From the NCBI RefSeq assembly GCF_036588685.1, contig NC_086380.1, forward strand, positions 58,528,001-58,592,000: DNA of 64,000 bases, written 5' to 3'. A program made the translations under genes and the position numbers. This DNA comes from Mytilus trossulus. Its lineage: Eukaryota. The notes under the pieces are model-generated. The model was not told where the DNA came from. It made no database searches and worked only from the letters and a program-made list of their open reading frames with translations. Of this stretch, positions 9,840 to 62,119 are shown piece after piece (position 1 is the first letter of the stretch; every line of letters starts with the position of its first letter).

Positions 9840-10070
9840 TTTTTTACCGGAACGAAAATGTATGTGTGGGAGGAATGATAAGGGATATCTATGTATTCTT
9901 CTTAGCATACACTATTAAAATAAAGTTCCCAATTTGTGGGACAAAGGTTAGTTAATCTGCCGTATGAGCTGTTTCAACACCCATGCAGTTATTAAATGAT
10001 TCCCAATTTATAAAAATAGAGCGCATCCGGAGAAATGCAGGGTTTAAATATTGTTCACCATCAGTTCGGT
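9840..10070 (+). promoter_or_regulatory. Putative IL-17 proximal promoter, conserved in all six copies
   Basis: TATAAAA at 10009-10015; kB-like sites aaagttccc and atgattccc; GAS-like ttaccggaa at ~9844; Inr-like tcagtt at 10061. Motif-level evidence only. Confidence 0.5.
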
Positions 10071-10139: not shown

Positions 10140-11022
10140 ATGAATTTAATCAATGTAAGCAACAATAGTTCAATGTTTCAATTATTCAGTTAAAAAGTGA
10201 TGTCTATATATCACGACCATTGTTTATTTTCATTCACATCTAGCATCAATAGATTAAATTCCTTAACTAATCTATAAAACTAAAAAATAGAAGTAATTTA
10301 AACCAATCTATAAAACTAAAAAATAGAAGTAATTTAAACCATTTGTTTTAATAATGAACGAATTTTTGAATTGCCTCTGCAATTGTTAATACTGTTGCGA
10401 AATCTAATAAACTTGAAACCTCAATTGAGTTTTTTCTTCATTTCATTTTCAGATCCTTAAAATTGCCAAAGTATACATTACATATTGTTTCGTGTTCGTC
10501 AATAGTGCACCAACATGTGCAGACCCTGAAGACGTACAGGCTAAATTAAACAGTATAAACGGAGGAGTAGATTACAGGACATTATTTTTCACTGACGGCT
10601 GGAAACCAGACACGATGGTCAGTGATTTTGAAAATCTGGTATCTCTAAGGAAGGATATGACAAAGATCGGTTGTCCTTCAACCTTTTTAGAAGGATTTGA
10701 TCTCCCATTAATGGCACGTACATCATGCCCTTGGTTTTTGGAACAAACGCCATACAATGCTGAAACATATCCCCATACACTCTATAGAGCTGCTACCAAA
10801 TGTGATAAATGTATAGATGCTTCTGGCGATCAAAAATGTTCACCAATTCAACGGAAAATCAAGATATTACGAAGAACTGGTTGTGACAATGGGCTTTATC
10901 AATATGAAGTCTCAGAGAAATATATCCCAATAGCCTATGTATGTGAAAAGCAAAGAGAGGTCGAACATGATGCTCCAATAATCCCTGCCCTACCACCAGC
11001 TGATGGACCAGACGGAATGTAA
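10140..11022 (+). CDS. IL17: IL-17-family cytokine, copy 1 (type A); exon 1 CDS 10140-10154, intron 10155-10452, exon 2 10453-11022; 194 aa
   Basis: ATG AAT TTA ATC AAT|gtaagc donor; tttcattttcag|ATC acceptor in frame with the 176-aa ORF. Hydrophobic leader MNLINILKIAKVYITYCFVFVNS-AP. IL-17 motifs RTSCPW, YPHTLYRA, KCDKC, CSPI, ILRRTGC, IAYVC. Confidence 0.9.
10265..10340 (+). repeat. 36-bp tandem duplication in the IL-17 intron (copies 1, 3, 4, 5; single unit in copies 2 and 6)
   Basis: aac(t/c)aatctataaaactaaaaaatagaagtaattta x2; intron lengths 298 vs 263 nt. Confidence 0.9.
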
Positions 11023-14000
11023 GGTTCATGATATACAACACATACATTCCAGAGTTACTGGAACACATATTGTAATGTCCTATGGACATATATGATTTTA
11101 TATTTATGATATTGATTTGTTAAATATTGACATAACGATAAGACTAATGAAATTTCCGTCCCCAAAAAACATTTCTTTATGTAGACTTGTCCTTACATTT
11201 GCATGTTTAAAAAAGATATATGTTCGTATGTTATTTCTTTCCGGAACAATTTTACTTTTAGTGTTAAAGTATGTATCTTTTGTTTTAAATATAAGCGAGT
11301 GCGAGAGTGTAAATCTGTACCTTTTTTTAGGTATGTATTTTATGAAAACAATACTTGATTAATTTCCTATGTCCAAAGCACTTTTCTATATTCCTTTCAT
11401 AAGTTACACTCAAACCCAAATATTCAAAATTAAAAGATGCGTAAGAACCAGTTAAAGAGCTATATGACAAAACGGCCATAAAAACAAAAATTGCCAATGT
11501 GAAAACTCTCCACAAGAGACCAAAATAACACAGAAATTAACAACTATAGATCATCGTACGACCTCAGCAATGAGCAAATTCCATACAACATAGTCAGCTA
11601 TCAGAGGACCCGAAATGACAATATTTGTATTTGTTTATTATAAAAAGATTGTTCAAATGTAATTTTTAAGAACATTATATAAAGTTATTTATGATCTGTC
11701 ATAACAGTGTCATAAAAGTATTTTATTATAAATCTATATTGTTTTTGATTTATTTTTATTTTGGAGCCTTGCATGTTTTTAATGCTGCATTTATTTGTTA
11801 TTCCTTTTTGTAATAAAATTTTACTTTTTATAATTTCTGTCTTATTCATGTTATAAACGTCTACATATTGGTATTTAAAAACACAGCAATTTAAAAAACA
11901 GATAAAGAAATATGTTCAAGTGATTATTTTTGATGTATGAACCTCTTTCATATGTTAAAATGTGGAGACTTTACTTTTATCCTAAAGTCTTCTAGTGGAT
12001 TCAATATATAAAGTGCGATTTGGCAAAGAACATATAATCGAATACTGAACCGGTCTAACAAATTTTCAAAAGCTGCAAAATTCAGTTGATATTTCAGTTT
12101 TACATTGTGTTATATAAAATGTTAAATTGTATGATATGACAAATATGATTGATGACATTGTCTGTTGATTCCAATATAAATTTTCTTTTCCAGCATATCA
12201 TTGATTAACATTGTTTTCAAGCATTTTTGTCAGTCTGATCATTCAATCCTTTTCATGAGAATTCGTATCATCGGAAAAGTATTCCCCAGGACTAACATTT
12301 TTTGCAATTTGGGAGTAAAAAACGTTTTTTATATAAAAAAATTAATTATGATTTTTTTAATCAACATAAACTTATATAATTGGGCTCAAATTGAAGCTAA
12401 ATTATTTAAGATGGTAAGAAAAATCTTACTTTACCATTTAAAGCATTAATTCTTACTCAAATAAAGCCAAAACCGTCATGCTGAACCCAAACAACGGCAA
12501 GAAATGAACATTTGAAATGCATAGTTTTGAATTTTTTAAATATTTCTAACGATGTCGATTTGGCCAACGTAAGATATGTTATTCTTTGAGAAAAATGGAA
12601 CGTCATATCGTTTTGAAAAATATTTGCCACCATACTCGTTTTTGAGGAAAATTGAGAAATATAATATTGTTTACTCAACCCCTCCCGTAAGCCTCACAAA
12701 TTGCGCCAAAAATTAAGACGTTTTCCGAAAATAACGTTATATTTCCCCGCTATTTTTTCAAAGGCAGTGCGACGATGTTGCAGACAAATGTATTTACACT
12801 GTGACTTTGTTGGGTAGTTGTCTCGATAGCACTCATATCGCATCTTCTTATTTATAATGAACCAGTATCTGAACAAGATAACAATTCAGTTAGTTTTACT
12901 ATTGTGTTCGTCAAAATTGTGAAACCCGGGTGCGAAACATACAAACCGTGGAATTACAGACTAAAATAGTCCCTCTGGTATCTTTCATCCCTCTTTTAAA
13001 AACAAAAGTATTACCCGTTAGAAATCCGTTTCTGCGTCTCGGTCTATAGTACCAAAGCAGGGTTAATTTTCATATTATACTTCCATTTGATTTTTTTCTT
13101 CTGAATACTCATTTAGTTTATGCCACTTCATTGTAGATGACAGACATCAAGTCACTTGACGTCCGTCATCCACAATCATTATTTATTTTATCGTTACTTT
13201 ACAATGAAGCGTTTGGCTTATATCGAAATTAACACAGAGCTCGTGAAATTTTGTGCAAACAAACACTTGTCTAAAAACTCACTAACTCCGTATTATTTAT
13301 TCGTTTTGCAGTTTTGGGGTTTTTATTCTTTATAGGCTTCTAGCTATAACAAAAATCTGTATGTTGACTCTGAGTGTTTTTAATTATACGGGTCTTTGGG
13401 TTGCTGTCGTATTAATGTATACTTTAAATCTTTTTCAAAACAAAATGATTGATTTGGGTATGGAAATATTCACATCTCTTAACTTCTCCCGTCCGACAGT
13501 ATATCTTTGCTAAAATTGGGTGCGGCCGTTTAGCTGCTAGGATGTATTAATTTGCAGCCTCGTTTAGTCGAAATAAGAATGTCGTTTATCCGATGCATAG
13601 TGAAGTGAGAGTCTCGCGCTATATAACGTTAAACGCAAACTTTATTTAACAAAAGAGATCAGAAATAAAATTGAGAATAAACGAACGGGCCGAAAAGCGA
13701 GCATGACTGTCGTTGTTTTACGCTTCAATATATGAGTTATTGCATATACACAATGGAGATTGTTTTCTGTTCTACTACCTTCTACCTAGTTTGGCTGCAT
13801 ACAATGTAACTACTGATGTTGACTTCTATTTTATCATTGATTGTTCAAACAAATGAATTGAAAGAAAAAAATGCGGAAAGAAAGTCTAAAATTTTCGTTT
13901 AAAAATAAAATATAAATTAAAACAAAATGCCAAAAATGAAAATCTGTTTGAGACAATTATCAGATGAGAACAAATGATTATGCATCACTATATGAAACTG

Positions 14001-18168: not shown

Positions 18169-18400
18169 TTCTGGTGATCAGAAATAGTCCTCAATTCAAC
18201 AACACATCAAGATATTAAGAAGAGCTGGTTGAGACAATGGCTTTTACAAATATGATGTATAAGAGACCTTTTTTGTATAGCCTTTGTATGTTAAAAGCCA
18301 AGAGTGGTAAAAAGCTATGTACAAATAATCCTTGCTGGATCACCAGATGATGGATCGAATAGAATGTAATGTCCATGATGTCCACAAAATCAATTCCATG
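18169..18400 (+). pseudogene. Decayed IL-17 fragment (3' half of exon 2 plus start of 3' UTR) upstream of copy 2
   Basis: tctggtgatcagaaatagtcctcaattcaac...aagatattaagaagagctggttgagacaatgg...gaatgtaatgtccatgat aligns with the end of the functional exon 2; in-frame stops and indels. Confidence 0.85.
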
Positions 18401-18865: not shown

Positions 18866-19713
18866 ATGAATTTAATCAATGTAAGCAACAATAGTTCAAT
18901 ATTTCAATTATTCCGTTAAAAAATGATGTCTATATATCACGACCATAGTTTATTTTCATTCACATCTAGCATCAATAGATGAAATTCCTTAACTAATCTA
19001 AAAAACTATAAAAATAGAAGTTATTTAAACCATTTGTTTTAATGATGAACGAATTGTTGAATTGCCTCTGCAATTGTTAATACTGTTGCGAAATCTAACA
19101 AACTTGAAACCTCAATTAAGTTTTTTTTTCATTTCATTTTCAGATCCTTAAAATTGTCAAAGTATACATTACATATTGTATCGTGTTCGTCAATAGTGCA
19201 CCAACATGTACAGACCCTGAAGACCTACAGGCTAAATTCAAAAGTATAAATGGAGGAGTAGATTACAAGACATTATTTTTCACTGACGGCTGGAAGCAAG
19301 ACACGATGGTCAGTGATTTTGAAAATCTGGTATCTCTAAGGAAGGATATGACAAAGATCGGTTGTCCTTCAACCTTTTTAGAAGGATTTGATCTCCCATT
19401 AATGGCACGTACATCATGCCCTTGGTTTTTGGAACAAACGCCATACAATACTGAAACATATCCCCATACACTCTATAGAGCTGCTACCAAATGTGATAAA
19501 TGTATAGATGCTTCTGGCGATCAAAAATGTTCACCAATTCAACGGAAAATCAAGATATTACGAAGAACTGGTTGTGGCAATGGGCTTTATCAATATGAAG
19601 TCTCAGAGAAATATATCCCAATAGCCTATGTATGTGAAAAGCAAAGAGAGGTCGAACATGATGCTCCAATAATCCCTGCCCTACCACCAGCTAATGGACC
19701 AGACGGAATGTAA
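18866..19713 (+). CDS. IL17: IL-17-family cytokine, copy 2 (type A, mosaic N-terminus); exon 1 18866-18880, exon 2 19144-19713
   Basis: Same splice signals, intact ORF, 263-nt intron, same motifs as copy 1. Confidence 0.9.
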
Positions 19714-26768: not shown

Positions 26769-27000
26769 TTCTGGTGATCAGAAATAGTCCTCAATTCAAC
26801 AGAAAATCTAAATATTAAGAAGAGCTGGTTGAGACAATGACTTTTACAAATATGATGTATAAGAGACCTATGTTTGTGTAGCCTTTGTATGTTAAAAGCC
26901 AAGAGTGGTGAAAAAAAAATATACAAATAACCCTTGCTGGATCACCAGCTGAGTGTTCGAATAAAATGTAATGTCCATGATATCCACAACATCAATTCCA
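26769..27000 (+). pseudogene. Decayed IL-17 fragment upstream of copy 3
   Basis: Paralog of 18169-18400 with the same TAG and TGA stops. Confidence 0.85.
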
Positions 27001-27463: not shown

Positions 27464-28346
27464 ATGAATTTAATCAATGTAAGCAACAATAGTTCAATGT
27501 TTCAATTACTCAGTTAAAAAGTGATGTCTATATATCACGACCATAGTTTATTTTCATTCACATCTAGCATCAATAGATGAAATTCCTTAACCAATCTATA
27601 AAACTAAAAAAAAGAAGTAATTTAAACCAATCTATAAAACTAAAAAATAGAAGTATTTTAAACCATTTGTTTTAATAATGAACGAATTTTTGAATTGCCT
27701 CTGCAATTGTTAATACTGTTGGGAAATCTAATAAACTTGAAACCTCAATTGAGTTTTTTCTTCATTTCATTTTCAGATCCTTATAATTGCCAAAGTATAC
27801 ATTACATATTGTATCGTGTTCGTCAAAAGTGCACCAACATGTACAGACCCTAAAGACGTACAGGCTAAATTCGACAGTATAATCGGAGGAGTAGATTACA
27901 GGACATTATTTTTCACTGACGGCTGGAAACAAGACACAATGGTCAGTGATTTTGAGAAACTGATATCTATAAGGGAAGATTTAACTAAAATTGGTTGTCC
28001 TTCAACATTTTTAGAAGGTTTTCATCTCCCATTAATGGCACGTACATCATGCCCTTGGTTTTTAGAGCAAACGCCATACATTGCTGAAACATATCCCCAT
28101 ACACTCTATAGAGCTGCTACCAAATGTACTAAATGTATAGATGCTTCTGGCGATCAGAAATGTTCACCAATTCAACAGAAAATCAAGATTTTACGAAGAA
28201 CTGGTTGTGACAATGGGCTTTATAAATATGAAGTCTCAGAGACCTATATCCCAATAGCCTATGTATGTGAAAAGCAAAGAGAGGTCGAAAATGATGTTCC
28301 AATAACCCCTGCCCTACCACCAGCTGATGGACCAGAAGGAATGTAA
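27464..28346 (+). CDS. IL17: IL-17-family cytokine, copy 3 (type B); exon 1 27464-27478, exon 2 27777-28346
   Basis: Intact ORF and splice sites; type-B residues VKSAP, KCTKC, IQQK, ETY, ENDV, GPEGM. Confidence 0.9.
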
Positions 28347-33908: not shown

Positions 33909-35039
33909 CGGAGTTTGCATTATGTTTTATTAGTTTTTGTATAAGCACCAAATGACTAATTATGTAAACTATATTTGTGCGGTAATCTATTATATGAACG
34001 TGTTTTAGAACATCGTTTACGGAAAAGAAGAAATATGACATCACTTTTCAAACAGGTTGATACGGAAGAATTTTCCAGGTTTCTTTTCTCTTTAATAGGT
34101 TAACATACTTGTAAAAGAGTAAACTTATAATTTTAAAACAACATTTTACATTACCTACACACTACGCCGTAAACCACAATCATATATAATTTCAAATCCC
34201 CTTCTTTGGCCGGAAATATTTGTTTAAAGTTTAAGCACCTATGTTTAATGTAGCCAACCAAATGTATCACACTTTTTAAACGTTCATTGTTAAAAATAGA
34301 AAGGAACGGTTGTTGAGTTGTAGCGAAAAATTTGTGTTCATTGGTTGCTTATAGATTCGTCATATTGAACATGTTGACAGTGATGTATGCACCATGTTTT
34401 AAATGACGTAAACCCGATTTAATTTTGGGAATATACCTGTCTTTTTTTAAATTTTAATAATTTGTTTAGCTTTTCACTCATTCACTTATGTGCATCTTAT
34501 GTTTAATTCTTTCAATAATTTTCACAGAAAGGACACCATTATTACCATAAACGCTTATATTCTATCAATATATACATACGTAGCTACAAATTATGCAATT
34601 GTGGCTGGACATAAATGTAGATCGGGGTTATATATTATTTCTTATAAAATCAAACGATATAAAACAAGAGACTTGTTGACTAAATTGTATTTTCGTTATA
34701 TCTATTTGCGTGTTTTCATGGGGAATTCATATTTATTACTTATTTAACTGATAAGATAAAACTTCTCTTGATTATCACAATAAAATATTTGCTAAAACAA
34801 ATACCAGCTAATACACGAACTTTTGTAATTATTGAATCGAAGCATTTAACTTATCATCCTTCAAACCAGACATGCGGTTAATTTTTATGTAGACTCGTCT
34901 AACGTAAAACATAAAATTTTAATCCTGGTTTATATGATGAGTTTATTTACAACCACTGGGTCGATGCCACTGCTGGTGGAATTTTATTGTTTATGATTCA
35001 TGTATGTACGTTGCACAAAACTTAATCGATAAAATTACT

Positions 35040-35896
35040 ATGATATTATTACGTAAGTATTTCTGTATTGGCCTGAGGCGAAGCCGAAGGCCAATACAGC
35101 TGGCCGAGGACCAATAACAAGGCCAATACAGAAATACACGTAATAGTATCTTTATTAATTAACTACAGTGTTACAATTTTATTTTTTTTTTTCATTTCAC
35201 AAGAGATAAATATTTTTACCTTGAAAATTGTTGAAGTGGAACTATCCAAATCTCAGTTTCTTTTTATTAGATGCAATATATATAATGATCTGGTGCTGTT
35301 TCTAGGTGTCTTCAGCATTTTCTCATCTGATGAATTTTTCTACCCTTTCCAGTCACTATAAAGTGTTGATATTGATACCACTATCCATAAGCCAAATTAC
35401 CAAAGAACAGAGATTTTCATAGTTACAGAATGCCTGGTTCGGGTTGAAAAAATAAATGAAAGTTTACAAAAAAAAAAGAGCGAAAGTAAACAGGTCCGAG
35501 GTCGTCAAGAAATGAACTTTGTGATAATCTACTCGTTCCCCAAACCTGAAAAAGTTCTATCATCTGCTTTCAAAATACTTTTTAAATGAATGTGACCGTC
35601 TTTAGCCTGAAATGTATGCCATACTGACATTTTCAGCATGTTTAGATGACTAAATGACAACTGTGTCTTCAAAACAACTGCTTACTTTCAGTTTCTGTTT
35701 TTCATGACTTTCGATGTAAAAACTAGAGACGTTCCGAAATCCTGCACTTGTGCCAACTCGGCCAACATAGAATAACTCGGCCAATACAAAAAAAATCTAT
35801 ATTGGCCGAGTTATTCTGTATTGGCCGAGTTTACACCTTATATTGAATAGGAAGGTTTCATCATATTAAGTCCAATAACAGTGTAGTTAATTAATA
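35040..35896 (-). mobile_element. HINE-like element, family 3
   Basis: Terminal hairpin 35047-35145; 21-bp subTIRs at 35153-35173 and 35876-35896 (one mismatch); internal hairpin ~35756-35831; absent from the opposite arm of the inverted duplication. Confidence 0.7.
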
Positions 35897-37320
35897 CTTC
35901 AATATAAAACTATCTACAGCCCAAATAAATGCATTTTAAAACAAATACCACATTTTGATAGCAAAATAATAAATAAAAAACAAACATTCATTGATTCTTT
36001 TAAAAATAAAAATTACAGCCCTGTCCGTTATGACCATAGTTGCATTTATGTTGTAAGTTTACCATTTACCATGTCCAGTATGTATTTTGTGATTTAATAT
36101 TCCAGATCATTTAACATGGATAGGGAAAGTTCATTAACTAGGTTAATCAATACGGAAGTACTGTATTTCACTCTAGAAGGCCGTTTACACTTCATTAACT
36201 TTAAATGGAAATGAAATCGCGTACCAATTGAAAATAGTTCAGTTATCATTAACAATAAAAGCGTATATTTAATCGAGGCATACTATTTGAAATACCTTCA
36301 ACATTTTCTTCATTGTTAAAGTGTGTCCGCTGTAAGAGTAAATTGGAGTAAATGAAACGACAACATAATTTAAGCCGATTTTCAAATCTCGAAAATTCAT
36401 GTTTGAAATGTAACCTTTATTAAGATGAAGGAGTCACATGAACTCCAAACGGAATAAGAATGTCGATGGGGTGTACGTGCCCCTTCATGTATGTACTAGA
36501 TAACATTATTCGTTTTGCAGGGGAGTAAAAATCAATGAGGCATTCAATAATCTTTTTTTACAGAATTGCCTATAGAAGTACTGAGGACATAACGTTCATT
36601 TATTTTTGTATGTACTTCAAAAGACTGTACTCTGCAAAACTCTTAATGTGTTCAATCAATTTAATTGTCACGAGCATCACTATAGCCACTTTATTTTCTT
36701 CAAACATTATTTATCGTGTTTGTCAAGTTTAGAAAAATTCAAGAAGTTTTTTTTTTATATATTTGCTTGGTTTTATTTAAACAAAACAAAAACATATAAA
36801 AGATAAAGTTCATTCAAAGCAAACAGTGTGTTTTATTTTGTGTTTGTACATATCGTTTATAATTCAATTTTGTAATTTAATGAAATTAATTTCTGTTTTG
36901 AAACGTCACACACCAATCACAGATGCAGGTTGTATCGTTTTATTTTGTTAATATTACTTCAACTACAGGGCATATGGACATAGTTATTCGCTCATTCTTT
37001 CATTATTACATTCATTTCATAGTATATAGTTAACCTGCTAAGTAAATGCTTGTTTGACAGTAAAAGGTCATCTGATAACGTTAATCTTAAAGATAATACA
37101 TCTATAAGGTAAACGGTTCTTCTATTACATGTTTTGTAAAAGTGTTTATCTCTTAACAAGTAAAAGAATTGGTGTATATACAAACAGATCAATGACATAA
37201 TAATAAAATAAAGTTATTACAATTTCCTTATATTTTTGTAAATCGGAAGTTCATTTATTTCAGGAAACTTGCCATTGCAAAAATATGTTGACGTTAATAA
37301 CGACAGAAAATTACCCTTAA

Positions 37321-39298: not shown

Positions 39299-42200
39299 TT
39301 AAGTTTTGTTTAACACATGTAGAGTTTGTTTTAAGTGCATCAAATAATGAAAAAATAATTTGTTCTTATCACTTCTCTAGGAAGTTCTGTAGATAATGTA
39401 TCTCAAAATAGATGCACTTGAATGTGTTATTTGATTTGAATGTTCGAGATCTGAAAAGCGGATTTACTTATAATGTTTCTTAATTTACTCTTATTCGTTT
39501 AAAATCTTAATGAAATTTCATGAACGATACATCAATAGAACAACACGTGTATCTTACAGAGGACACACTATGCCAATAAAGAAAATGTTTAAGGTCTCAA
39601 AGGCTTCGATTTAATACAGGGCTTCGTTTAATGATAACTGAAATATTTTCAATTGGTACACGATTTTATTTTAATTAAATGTTAATCAAGTGTGTACGGC
39701 CTTCTAGAGTGAGATACATCACTTCCGTATTGATTGACCTAGTTTTTTGAACTTTTCATATCCAGGTTTAATTGACAGATTGAATCACAAAATACATATT
39801 GTACATGGTAAAGGATATAAGTACGACAGCAATGCAGCTTGTTTGTTCATAACGGACATAATAGTAAATTGTTTTTTGAATAGAATCAATGATTATAGAT
39901 TTTGATTTATTATTTTTGTTTTAAAAGTATTTATATGGGGTTTAGATAGTTTTATATTGAAGTAATAATCATCATGTATCATCAACTTTATGTCTGGTTT
40001 GATAGGAGAAATATTAACATAGATCTATTCATTTCTTATAGAAGTTTTTGTTATAGCTGGTATTGACTTAAAATAATCAAGAGAAGTTTTATTTCATTAG
40101 TTAAATAGTTAATACATATGATACCAATGAAACACAAGCGAATATATATGACATAAACTTAAATTAGCCGAAAAGTCTTTTGTTCTATATCATGTGTATG
40201 GTATGATTTTATTTGATTTTTTATATAACCCCGATCTACATGTATGTCTCGCCATAATTGCATAGTTCTTTAGCTGTGCAAATATGTTGATAGACTACCA
40301 CGATTAATGGTAAAACAGTATCCTTTCTGTGCAAATTAATGAAGGACTTACCATAATAATGAAAACATGTGAACAGCTAAAGCTTATTAAAAGTATAGAT
40401 AAGCTAAGAATACGCAAGGAATTTAACCAAACGATAAATCGGGTTTACGTCATTTGAAACTGAAAATATGTTTCATCATTGTTCTACTTAAGTTATTTCA
40501 GTTTTTAAATAAGCTTTATTCACTAGCTCGAATATACTGTATACTTGATATATATGAGGATATACTACCACTTCCTCTTTCCATATCTTATGCTATATTC
40601 AAAGTTAAGAAATCATTTATCATGTTTATAACTTATGTGTATTTAATTAAATGGATAAGTGTACAACTAGTCCCATTATATCAGCTCACACAGAAAATTA
40701 ACAATACATTCAGGCTAATATGATTTAACAAACAGTGAAACGAATACTTCCGTTTTCCAAGTTTTAATAAAAACAAAATTAAGTCGTTGACCTAATATAT
40801 GAATTATATGCTATAACTAATCTTGCTTATTGTTACAGGACATAAGTTGATCTAGTGATGTTAATTTTTGTATCATTTGGTCTCTTGTGAAGAGTTTTCT
40901 TTTGTATGTTTTCTCATTGTCAATCATACCACATCTTCTTTTTTTTATAAATTCTTTAATAATCACACACCCTGATGAATGTGTAAGCTGTATGGTGTTG
41001 TTAATCTTTGTCGATAACTTGCATTTAATGATAATAACAAGAAAAAATATTGATATTTTGATAAATTTTGTTGGAAACAAGTATATTCTGACCAAAAGAT
41101 ATTAGATCATCGTAGAGTATTAAAAGACAGGCAAAATATACCAAAAGTGATAACAAAACACTAAACATAACATAAAAAAAAACTAACACTGACTATCACG
41201 AGCGCCACCAACAATAAGGGTGATCTTAGGAGCTCAAGAAAAAAATCATTTATAATTAAATGCTTGAATTCTTTTGGAGTAAGTTCCTTTGAGTTCTCAT
41301 GGAATTATATAGATTAATGTCGGGTTTTTTTTCTGGGGGAGTGGGTTAAATGTTTTTTTTCCCTACAAAACGTTTTAACCTGGTACCTTTTGACGGCGAT
41401 TATTCATTTTTTTCTATGTCCTATATTTTTCCCATTAATCTGTTTATTTATTGTAACCCTGTCGTGTAGTAATGTCATTTTAATGTTATAATTAACACTG
41501 CCATTAAAGTGGGAGGCTTGGCATGCCACAAAACCAGGTTCAACCCACCAAGTCAGGAAAATGGCCATTGTTACATTATAGTTCATTTCTGTGTGTGTTA
41601 CATTTAGGTGTTGTGTCTCTGTTGCGTCCTAGTTCTCTTATATTTGTTGCCTTTATTTACATGTGCATTTAGGTAAATATAGGCTGGTAAAACACTGATG
41701 ACATTTAAAAAAACTTCAGTTCTGGAACAACTAAATCTTTCTGTAAATTCACACAGCGGAATGATACCAACACATTATTTATAAAAAAGGAGTAAATTAT
41801 CCAACAGGAAAGTTTCCACCTCAAAATGTAAAAATTGCATTTGTCAGAAAGTAGCCTAAAATTACTATAAAATTAAGTCGTTTTCAAACTTTGTAGGCGA
41901 TATGTCAAGTTGGGTTGTTCCGTATATTCAATGTTCATGAAAAACAATGACTATCTCAAAATGGCCCTTAAGATTTAAACACAAATTTTGTTGCAGTGTA
42001 ATTTTCTCCCTTCTCTGCTATTTATTTGAGACACAACACAAGAAGAAAGACATATGGAAGGTATATGAGAAAAATACACTGTCAACAATATGATCTATAT
42101 TTGCAAGTAACGAAAACCAAAGCACGATTACTCTTTCCCGGAAGACACTTATTTGTATTTGCGAAAATAATTAGGATCCAGAAGACAAAACAGTGGTAAT

Positions 42201-43533: not shown

Positions 43534-43760
43534 TTCTGGTGATCAAAAATAGTCTCAATTCAACAGAAAATCAAGATGTTGAGAAGAGCTGGTTGAGACA
43601 ATAGATTTTACAAATATGATGTATCAGAGACCTATGTTTCGATAGCCGTTGTATGTTCAAAGCCAAGAGCGGTCTAAAATGATGAATAATTAACCCTTAC
43701 GGACCACAAGCTGATAGGTCGAAAATAATGTAATGTCCATGATATCCACAACCTCAATTC
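43534..43760 (+). pseudogene. Decayed IL-17 fragment upstream of copy 4
   Basis: Paralog of 18169-18400. Confidence 0.85.
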
Positions 43761-44231: not shown

Positions 44232-45114
44232 ATGAATTTAATCAATGTAAGCAACAATAGTTCAATGTTTCAATTATTCAGTTAAAAAGTGATGTCTATA
44301 TATCACGACCATAGTTTATTTTCATTCACATCTAGCATCAATAGATGAAATTCCTTAACCAATCTATAAAACTAAAAAATAGAAGTAATTTAAACCAATC
44401 TATAAAACTAAAAAATAGAAGTAATTTAAACCATTTGTTTTAATAATGAACGAATTTTTGAATTGGCTCTGCAATTGTTAATACTGTTGCGAAATCTAAT
44501 AAATTTGAAACCTCAATTGAGTTTTTTCTTCATTTCATTTTCAGATCCTTAAAATTGCCAAAGTATACATTACATATTGTTTCGTGTTCGTCAATAGTGC
44601 ACCAACATGTGCAGACCCTGAAGACGTACAGGCTAAATTAAACAGTATAAACGGAGGAGTAGATTACAGGACATTATTTTTCACTGACGGCTGGAAACCA
44701 GACACGATGGTCAGTGATTTTGAAAATCTGGTATCTCTAAGGAAGGATATGACAAAGATCGGTTGTCCTTCAACCTTTTTAGAAGGATTTGATCTCCCAT
44801 TAATGGCACGTACATCATGCCCTTGGTTTTTGGAACAAACGCCATACAATACTGAAACATATCCCCATACACTCTATAGAGCTGCTACCAAATGTGATAA
44901 ATGTATAGATGCTTCTGGCGATCAAAAATGTTCACCAATTCAACGGAAAATCAAGATATTACGAAGAACTGGTTGTGACAATGGGCTTTATCAATATGAA
45001 GTCTCAGAGAAATATATCCCAATAGCCTATGTATGTGAAAAGCAAAGAGAGGTCGAACATGATGCTCCAATAATCCCTGCCCTACCACCAGCTAATGGAC
45101 CAGACGGAATGTAA
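44232..45114 (+). CDS. IL17: IL-17-family cytokine, copy 4 (type A); exon 1 44232-44246, exon 2 44545-45114
   Basis: Intact; differs from copy 1 at two residues of the 176-aa ORF (NAE/NTE, PAD/PAN). Confidence 0.9.
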
Positions 45115-51989: not shown

Positions 51990-52220
51990 TTCTGGTGATC
52001 AGAAATAGTCCTCAATTCAACAGAAAACCAAGATATTAAGAAGAGCTGGTTGAGACAATTGATTTTACAAATATGATGTATCAGAGACCTATATTTCGAT
52101 AGCCTGTGTATGTTAAAAGACAAGAGCGGTCGAAAATGATGTACAAATAACCGTTGCCGGACCACCAGCTGATGAATCGAATATACTGAAATGTCCATGA
52201 TATCCACCACCTCAATTCAA
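51990..52220 (+). pseudogene. Decayed IL-17 fragment upstream of copy 5
   Basis: Paralog; reads ATA GCC TGT GTA TGT (IACVC) at 52099-52113. Confidence 0.85.
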
Positions 52221-52686: not shown

Positions 52687-53569
52687 ATGAGTTTAATCAA
52701 TGTAAGCAACAATAGTTCAATGTTTCAATTATTCAGTTAAAAAGTGATGTCTATATATCACGACCATAGTTTATTTTCATTCACATCTAGCATCAATAGA
52801 TGAAATTCCTTAACCAATCTATAAAACTAAACAATAGAAGTAAGTTAAACCAATCTATAAAACTAAAAAATAGAAGTAATTTACACCATTTGGTTTAATA
52901 ATGAACGAATTTTTGAATTGCCTCTGCAATCGTTAATACTGTTGCGAAATCTTATAAACTTGAAACCTCAATTGAGTTTTTTCTTCATTTCATTTTCAGA
53001 TCCTTAAAATTGCCAAAGTATACATTACATATTGTTTCGTGTTCGTCAATAGTGCACCAACATGTGCAGACCCTAAAGACGTACAGGCTAAATTAAACAG
53101 TATAAACGGAGGAGTAGATTACAGGACATTATTTTTCACTGACGGCTGGAAACCAGACACGATGGTCAGTGATTTTGAAATACTGGTATCTATAAGGAAG
53201 GATATGACAAAGATCGGTTGTCCTTCAACCTTTTTAGAAGGATTTGATCTCCCATTAATGGCACGTACATCATGCCCTTGGTTTTTGGAACAAACGCCAT
53301 ACAATACTGAAACATATCCCCATACACTCTATAGAGCTGCTACCAAATGTGATAAATGTATAGATGCTTCTGGCGATCAAAAATGTTCACCAATTCAACG
53401 GAAAATCAAGATATTACGAAGAACTGGTTGTGACAATGGGCTTTATCAATATGAAGTCTCAGAGAAATATATCCCAATAGCCTATGTATGTGAAAAGCAA
53501 AGAGAGGTCGAACATGATGCTCTAATAATCCCTGCCCTACCACCAGCTAATGGACCAGACGGAATGTAA
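52687..53569 (+). CDS. IL17: IL-17-family cytokine, copy 5 (type A); exon 1 52687-52701 (MSLIN), exon 2 53000-53569
   Basis: Intact ORF, GT-AG intron of 298 nt, same motifs. Confidence 0.9.
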
Positions 53570-60584: not shown

Positions 60585-60810
60585 TTCTGGCGATCAGAAA
60601 TAGTCCTCAATTCAACAGAAAACCAAGATATTAAGAAGAGCTGGTTGAGACAAGGGATTTTACAAATATGATGTATCAGAGACCTATATTTCTATAGCCT
60701 TTGTATGTTTAAAGCCAAGAGCGGTCGAAAATGATGTACAAATAACCCTTGCGGACCACAAGCTGATGGGTCGAATATAATGTAATGTCCATGATATCCA
60801 CAACACCAAT
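60585..60810 (+). pseudogene. Decayed IL-17 fragment upstream of copy 6
   Basis: Translates SGDQK*SSIQQKTKILRRAG*DKGFYKYDVSETYISIAFVCLKPRAVENDVQITLA, versus functional SGDQKCSPIQQKIKILRRTGCDNGLYQYEVSETYIPIAYVCEKQREVENDVPITLA. Confidence 0.88.
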
Positions 60811-61271: not shown

Positions 61272-62119
61272 ATGAATTTAATCAATGTAAGCAACAATAG
61301 TTCAATGTATCGATTATTCAGTTAAAAAAAGGTGTCTTTATATTACGACCATAGATTATTTTCATTCACATCTAGTACCAATAGATAGAATTCCTAAACC
61401 AATCTATAAAACTATAAAAATAAAAGTTATTTAAACCATTTGTTTTAATAATGGACAAATTTTTGAATTGCCTCTGCAATTGTTAATATTGTTGCGAAAT
61501 CTAACAAGCTTGACCACTCAATTGAGTATTTTCTTCATTTTATTTTCAGATCCTTATAATTGCCAAAGTATACATTACATATTGTACCGTGTTCGTCAAA
61601 AGTGCACCAACATGTACAGACCCTAAAGACGTACAGGCAAAATTAAACAGTATAAACGGAGGAGTAGATTACAGGACATTATTTTTCACTGACGGCTGGA
61701 AACAAGACACAATGGTCAGTGATTTTGAGAAACTGGTATCTATAAGGGAAGATTTTACTAAAATTGGTTGTCCTTCAACATTTTTAGAAGGTTTTAATCT
61801 CCCATTAATGGCACGTACATCATGCCCTTGGTTTTTAGAGCAAACGCCTTACATTGCTGAAACATATCCCCATACACTATATAGAGCTGCTACCAAATGT
61901 ACTAAATGTATAGATGCTTCTGGCGATCAGAAATGTTCACCAATTCAACAGAAAATCAAGATATTACGAAGAACTGGTTGTGACAATGGGCTTTATCAAT
62001 ATGAAGTCTCAGAGACCTATATCCCAATAGCCTATGTATGTGAAAAGCAAAGAGAGGTCGAAAATGATGTTCCAATAACCCTTGCCCTACCACCAGCTGA
62101 TGGACCAGAAGGAATGTAA
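61272..62119 (+). CDS. IL17: IL-17-family cytokine, copy 6 (type B); exon 1 61272-61286, exon 2 61550-62119
   Basis: Intact ORF, 263-nt intron, type-B residues. Confidence 0.9.

Follow-up and report, generated by a model that had tools for sequence, protein, structure and literature searches.

Six tandem interleukin-17 genes of Mytilus trossulus with the T1B cystine knot, a published type lacking cysteines 2 and 5

Six interleukin-17 (IL-17) genes, in tandem and on the same strand, are present in the 64-kb stretch of Mytilus trossulus DNA analysed here (the window). In each of them the second and the fifth cysteine of the cystine knot (Cys 2 and Cys 5) are replaced, and Cys 1, 3, 4 and 6 are kept. 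This is the arrangement known as type T1B. The six intact genes are mussel T1B IL-17s, which very probably act as ordinary secreted pro-inflammatory cytokines.

Each copy is made up of a five-codon exon 1, a GT-AG intron of 263 or 298 bases and an exon 2, which together give a protein of 194 residues. The frames are open in all six copies, which lie in the window as follows.

10140..10154, + strand: copy 1, exon 1, five codons from the ATG, then the GT donor
10155-10452: copy 1, intron
10453..11022, + strand: copy 1, exon 2, the rest of the 194-residue IL-17 (IL17-16 orthologue), stop included; Pfam IL17 E 3.5e-9
18866..19713, + strand: copy 2, exon 1 18866-18880, exon 2 19144-19713; Thr codon 19486, Tyr codon 19627; identical to XP_063397816.1
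27464..28346, + strand: copy 3, exon 1 27464-27478, exon 2 27777-28346; Thr codon 28119, Tyr codon 28260; reads TKCTKC; exon 2 identical to XP_063448269.1
44232..45114, + strand: copy 4, exon 1 44232-44246, exon 2 44545-45114; Thr codon 44887, Tyr codon 45028; identical to XP_063448270.1
52687..53569, + strand: copy 5, exon 1 52687-52701, exon 2 53000-53569; Thr codon 53342, Tyr codon 53483; identical to XP_063448271.1
61272..62119, + strand: copy 6, exon 1 61272-61286, exon 2 61550-62119; Thr codon 61892, Tyr codon 62033; reads TKCTKC; identical to XP_063448272.1

Copies 2, 4, 5 and 6 are thus identical to M. trossulus RefSeq proteins with the same short exon 1. For copies 1 and 3 the RefSeq match is in exon 2 only (that of copy 1 is identical to XP_063448268.1), and the annotated first exon differs. 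It was observed that in these two models (P0011 and P0013) a longer upstream first exon, in the region 9864-9935 for copy 1, replaces the five-codon exon. As every copy has the short exon with its donor in an intact state, the RefSeq models of copies 1 and 3 may be mis-annotated. No joint across the copy 1 intron was found in contigs from four of the 12 listed runs, a result on which no weight is placed.

Units of about 8.5 kb with 85-97% DNA identity make up the array (window 9700-64000), which is broken at about 30-40 kb by sequence unrelated to it. This gap contains two pairs of inverted repeats that are 70-75% identical (34396-34873 with 39990-40460, and 35890-36337 with 39552-39969), perhaps a decayed transposon. 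The copies form two groups, one of copies 1, 2, 4 and 5 and the other of copies 3 and 6. The coding sequences of copies 1 and 4 differ at 2 of 585 bases, and such near-identity may reflect either a very recent duplication or a duplicate introduced by the assembly. The 3' part of copy 2 equals copy 4, and its differences from copies 1, 4 and 5 (19144-19300) fall mostly in codons 10-57, where its letters are partly common to copies 3 and 6; from its sequence, copy 2 resembles a mosaic such as unequal crossing-over or gene conversion would produce.

Five stop-riddled fragments were also seen on the + strand (18169-18398, 26769-27000, 43534-43748, 51990-52218 and 60585-60806). They correspond to the 3' third of an IL17-3/16-like exon 2, with 72-78% DNA identity to copy 1, and precede exon 1 of copies 2-6 by about 0.45-0.5 kb, none being found before copy 1. 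These fragments are duplicated together with the repeat unit. Searches with loose patterns and no chance control gave a kappaB-like site in five of the six copies (copy 1: 9921-9930), a TATA box some 130 bases before the start codon in all six (copy 1: 10009-10014) and at least one ATTTA within 500 bases after the stop, again in all six (copy 1: 11102-11106).

Membership in the family is well grounded. All four queries, drawn from copies 1, 3 and 6, matched the Pfam IL17 profile (PF06083) at 35.2-37.7 bits; with a cut-off of 24, the match is not due to chance. An AlphaFold2 model has four strands and a pLDDT of 93.7, and its best Foldseek matches are IL-17A (E 7e-6). The top three VIA hits of the model are IL-25 and IL-17A, with Z of 6.4-7.8, which is middling according to the tool's note. 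The homodimer prediction, which is not counted as evidence here, scored 0.56, with one control at 0.40. To the protein P0020 (VDI39142.1), which matches by eye the IL17-16 sequence given in the supplementary data of Saco 2021 (PMC8353272), the six copies are identical at 171-186 of 194 residues (88-96%; copy 1, 174/194), and to IL17-3 (AKM49937.1) at 117-129 of 194 (60-66%). The Mytilus IL17-16 isoform threshold is at least 80% identity to the isoform cluster, a value that is compared here by protein identity and that Saco 2021 applied in clustering its own set. Judged by protein identity, the six genes are six copies of the Mytilus IL17-16 orthologue.

Copy 1 encodes nine cysteines, at residues 17, 27, 79, 97, 122, 125, 134, 149 and 169, and Cys codons at 97, 122, 125, 134, 149 and 169 are found in all six copies. 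Cleavage of the signal peptide near residue 23/24 would remove Cys17 and leave eight in the mature protein of copy 1. A cut at this place is published, in the passages of Saco 2021 (PMC8353272) concerned, for the paralogue IL17-3, whose signal-peptide likelihood is 0.98; IL17-16 itself is given there a signal-peptide likelihood of 0.47, without a cut site. By eye, the N-terminus of IL17-16 is hydrophobic. The sites that matter for the knot are given below for copy 1.

10726..10728, + strand: Cys97, knot Cys 1 (CPW motif), facing the Ser of IL-17A SPW; predicted partner Cys134
10795..10797, + strand: Thr120, replacing knot Cys 2
10801..10803, + strand: Cys122, extra Cys outside the knot; putative partner Cys79 (10672-10674)
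10810..10812, + strand: Cys125, knot Cys 3; predicted partner Cys169, the same pair being modelled for McIL-17-3
10837..10839, + strand: Cys134, knot Cys 4 (CxP motif)
10882..10884, + strand: Cys149, loop Cys; putative partner Cys27 (10516-10518), within or between chains
10936..10938, + strand: Tyr167, replacing knot Cys 5
10942..10944, + strand: Cys169, knot Cys 6

An earlier note on this DNA had read a Thr codon at 10795 and a Tyr codon at 10936 of copy 1, and these are indeed ACC (Thr120) and TAT (Tyr167); the same two codons occupy the sites in every copy. Its statement that all six genes read RAATKCDKC and IAYVC stands in full for IAYVC. For RAATKCDKC it stands in four copies, since copies 3 and 6 read RAATKCTKC, a variant in which no Cys is altered. 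The SCPW/KCSP pair (Cys 1/4), which the note had taken to be retained, is kept, and so is the pair Cys 3/6, with Cys97, Cys134, Cys125 and Cys169 present in six of six. All copies, therefore, lack Cys 2 and Cys 5 and carry Cys 1, 3, 4 and 6, as in T1B. A T1A protein has six knot cysteines, and here Thr and Tyr stand at sites 2 and 5. A T2 protein has Ser at sites 1 and 4 and Cys at 2, 3, 5 and 6; here Cys is found at 1 and 4 and at neither 2 nor 5.

The assignment of these sites depends on the register, which was set by a profile of 141 homologues aligned to human IL-17A. A pairwise PDB sequence search was rejected as the basis because it was too weak (best E 0.02). In the profile, the family's ArckCkkC falls on AKCRHLGC of IL-17A, and vgctC falls on VGCTC. 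By this alignment sites 2, 3, 5 and 6 are occupied by Thr120, Cys125, Tyr167 and Cys169, respectively, and Cys122 lies opposite a His of IL-17A. Furthermore, from the conserved Pro onwards the C-terminal strand aligns without a gap, which places Tyr at site 5 and Cys169 at site 6.

The homologues themselves were taken as 50%-identity representatives, the best 150 of 179 matches being used. In this set, Cys is present at both sites 2 and 5 in 109, absent from both in 39, present at site 2 only in two and at site 5 only in none. The two rows with site 2 only both have aberrant C-termini. The covariation is strong (Fisher p 5e-34), a value that overstates independence as the rows are related and the 39 losses are not 39 independent events. 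Such a joint loss is, at the level of aligned sequences, the pattern expected of a bonded pair. Together, the profile register and the joint loss (109/2/0/39) uphold the claim of the earlier note that both partners of one knot bond are replaced.

The same set clarifies the status of Cys122. Its equivalent is present in 149 of the best 150 of 179 homologues, and thus Cys122 is no stand-in for site 2. It also accompanies Cys 2 in all 111 homologues of this set that keep Cys 2, which makes it a separate and older cysteine. The TKC cysteine accordingly lies outside the canonical first-Cys register, as the earlier note had assumed. The one exception among the 150 also lacks the Cys79 equivalent, and this single row without both lends weak support to a Cys79-Cys122 pairing. 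The N-terminal Cys and the loop Cys tend to occur together (96/7/8/11, counted over the 122 rows whose N-terminus is long), which suggests a Cys27-Cys149 bond within or between chains. The counterpart of this bond in IL-17A/F is between chains. Human IL-17A/F (T2) has the same fold as the six copies and likewise two of the three knot bonds; however, it keeps Cys 2/5 and 3/6, has Ser at 1 and 4, and is without a Cys122 equivalent.

The loss of Cys 2 and 5 is already known as a named, widespread and published type. According to passages of Chen 2024 (PNAS, PMC11087794), IL-17 knots are sorted into five types, and T1B is the one in which Cys 2/5 is lost and the four strands are still linked. T1B and T1C are stated there to be "commonly found" in invertebrates, with three T1B genes in amphioxus. 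The six copies agree with that description in the loss of Cys 2 and 5 and the retention of Cys 1/4 and 3/6; the replacing residues and the two extra Cys pairs are not described in these passages of the paper. In the part of its dataset concerned, XP_033644984, which was scored here as Cys 2/5-lost, is included, and none of the six Mytilus rows is a ligand, so that no type is assigned there to IL17-16 itself. In the literature search, PMC11087794 was the sole related source for the term T1B. Passages of PMC4517768 describe the third invertebrate bond alone, and nothing resembling T1B appears in those of PMC13105070. The earlier note had implied that the pattern was new. That does not hold, as it is common in described mollusc clades, T1B having been published and being found in 38 of 150 clusters (best 150 of 179).

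Closer relatives are also on record. The Mytilus IL17-16 of Saco 2021 (PMC8353272) has the same Thr/Tyr pattern; in the passages concerned, 6-8 Cys are counted as three bonds, the loss of Cys 2/5 is not remarked upon, and IL17-16 is present in 0-2 variants per M. galloprovincialis genome, whereas six copies lie in 64 kb here. Similarly, McIL-17-3/MgIL17-3 (PMC10055819; AKM49937.1 = P0023), as described in passages of that paper, is a protein of 194 residues with the same Cys numbering, Thr at site 2, an aromatic residue at site 5 and the same two predicted knot bonds, Cys97/134 and Cys125/169, which are modelled. It is a paralogue, about 61% identical to the copies, and the functional data belong to it and not to them. 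The passages of Chen 2023 (PMC10055819) claim the Thr at its second site as a first report and name the other lost position as the sixth, replaced by Gln, Arg or Val. In IL17-3, -5 and -2 these three residues stand two positions after the final Cys, and this suggests a two-residue shift in that alignment. On this comparison of sequences, the paper probably misnames the lost site, which would be the fifth and not the sixth.

The best 150 of 179 representatives comprise 104 with all six knot Cys, 38 with the T1B pattern and eight others. The pattern occurs in 19 of the top 25 homologues and in 19 of the next 125, in a search for which this protein was itself the query. It reaches mussels, scallops, abalone and sea stars; the carriers named, from 20 of the 38 looked up, are Mytilus edulis, Potamilus, Dreissena, Mizuhopecten, Argopecten, Haliotis asinina, Asterias and Patiria. 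In M. galloprovincialis, six of the 23 isoforms show it by eye (IL17-3, -5, -6, -7, -16 and -17). Of the 38 rows, 31 have Phe or Tyr at site 5 and 32 have Thr, Pro or Ser at site 2. A small residue at site 2 and an aromatic one at site 5 suggest packing in place of the bond. The replacement by Phe/Tyr and a small residue was not found described in the T1B literature passages.

A quick tree of 108 columns, Cys columns included and 72 of its 148 forks open, places 36 of the 40 rows that lost site 2 in one group (SH-aLRT 88). The tree requires five changes, and its well-supported branches force only one. A subgroup of the T1B-pattern rows, Dreissena among them, is further without the loop Cys and, in most cases, without the N-terminal Cys, with about six Cys left (P0031, P0039, P0045, P0060, P0064, P0108, P0133, P0158, P0160, P0163, P0170, P0174 and neighbours).

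Other readings of these data have to be weighed. One could assume a different register, in which Cys122 is knot Cys 2 or Cys169 is Cys 5 with Cys 6 lost; a pairwise phmmer comparison with IL-17A is ambiguous in this region and ends before the last motif, and the text of PMC10055819, in the passages concerned, names site 6. This is very improbable, given that Cys122 coexists with Cys 2 wherever the latter is kept (111 of 111, best 150 of 179), that the gapless C-terminal strand assigns Tyr to site 5 and Cys169 to site 6, and that the Gln, Arg and Val past the last Cys point to a shifted alignment in that paper. Recent decay, by which redundant tandem copies turning pseudogene would have lost their cysteines, is extremely improbable and is refuted by the conservation seen in other species. 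Thr120 is found in all of 15 aligned sequences, which come from more than one Mytilus species and are 60-99% identical, the pattern extends to scallops, Dreissena, abalone and sea stars, and the six frames are all open. It is true that stop-riddled IL-17 fragments share the repeat units and that 17 of the 19 variable sites among copies 1, 2, 4 and 5 alter the protein; however, this non-synonymous excess is not significant (p = 0.2), and none was significant in the four groupings of copies that were compared (p 0.15-0.96).

A third reading concerns function. The loss of the Cys 2/5 bond might alter the ligand so much that IL17-16, or T1B ligands in general, would engage another receptor or behave as a partial agonist or an antagonist. 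That most T1B-pattern rows form one group in the quick tree (36 of 40, SH-aLRT 88, Cys columns included) and that the replacements are conserved, with an aromatic site 5 in 31 of 38, would agree with this, and the six mussel IL-17R isoforms mentioned in passages of PMC8353272 could split ligand classes. In its fullest version, T1B would be an old, mollusc subfamily of mostly single origin, its small/aromatic pair would reshape the dimer or the receptor face, it would have its own receptor or damp the six-Cys ligands, and the six-copy array would be an expansion of modulator dosage. Both the short and the full version are considered unlikely. The T1B strands are still linked by definition in the passages of PMC11087794, the AlphaFold2 model keeps the IL-17 fold, and McIL-17-3, a T1B protein, raised an NF-kB reporter and apoptosis. 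The suggestion in the earlier note that the protein may be a modulator or antagonist found no support, as this same T1B paralogue increased both the reporter and hemocyte apoptosis.

The evidence on McIL-17-3 comes from passages of PMC10055819. It was induced 3-4-fold by Vibrio, it raised the NF-kB reporter 2.07- and 11.07-fold, and it increased LPS-induced hemocyte apoptosis. The reporter assay was an overexpression of a GFP-vector plasmid in HEK293 cells, without the mussel receptor; as evidence of receptor agonism, the result is weak. IL17-3 is reported, in passages of the published work, as the top-expressed mussel isoform and is up in gills after Vibrio bath infection. Among the passages listed on mussel IL-17 expression, none mentions IL17-16, and no functional data on it were found in the literature.

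Under the preferred reading, the six proteins would be ordinary pro-inflammatory cytokines that keep the cystine-knot beta fold. The predicted bonds Cys97-Cys134 and Cys125-Cys169 would tie all four strands, and the predicted Cys79-Cys122 and Cys27-Cys149, the latter possibly between chains, would add two more; the knot pairings rest on homology, covariation and the published homology model. The aromatic ring at site 5 may pack against the small residue at site 2, taking up the room that the missing bond leaves. By analogy with the family and the paralogue, it is expected that IL17-16 is secreted, dimerises and binds a SEFIR-domain IL-17 receptor, and that the bound ligand would signal as an agonist via CIKS/TRAF6 to NF-kB.

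The result confirms that a further cluster of mussel genes has an IL-17 knot type already in print and, as such, matters little. It adds that T1B makes up six of the 23 isoforms of the mussel repertoire, that a small residue opposite Phe or Tyr almost always takes the place of the lost bond, and that PMC10055819 probably names the wrong lost site. Nothing found points to a receptor specific to T1B or to antagonism of T1A. Were either true, it would help to explain the division of labour among some 30 bivalve IL-17 genes and six receptors.
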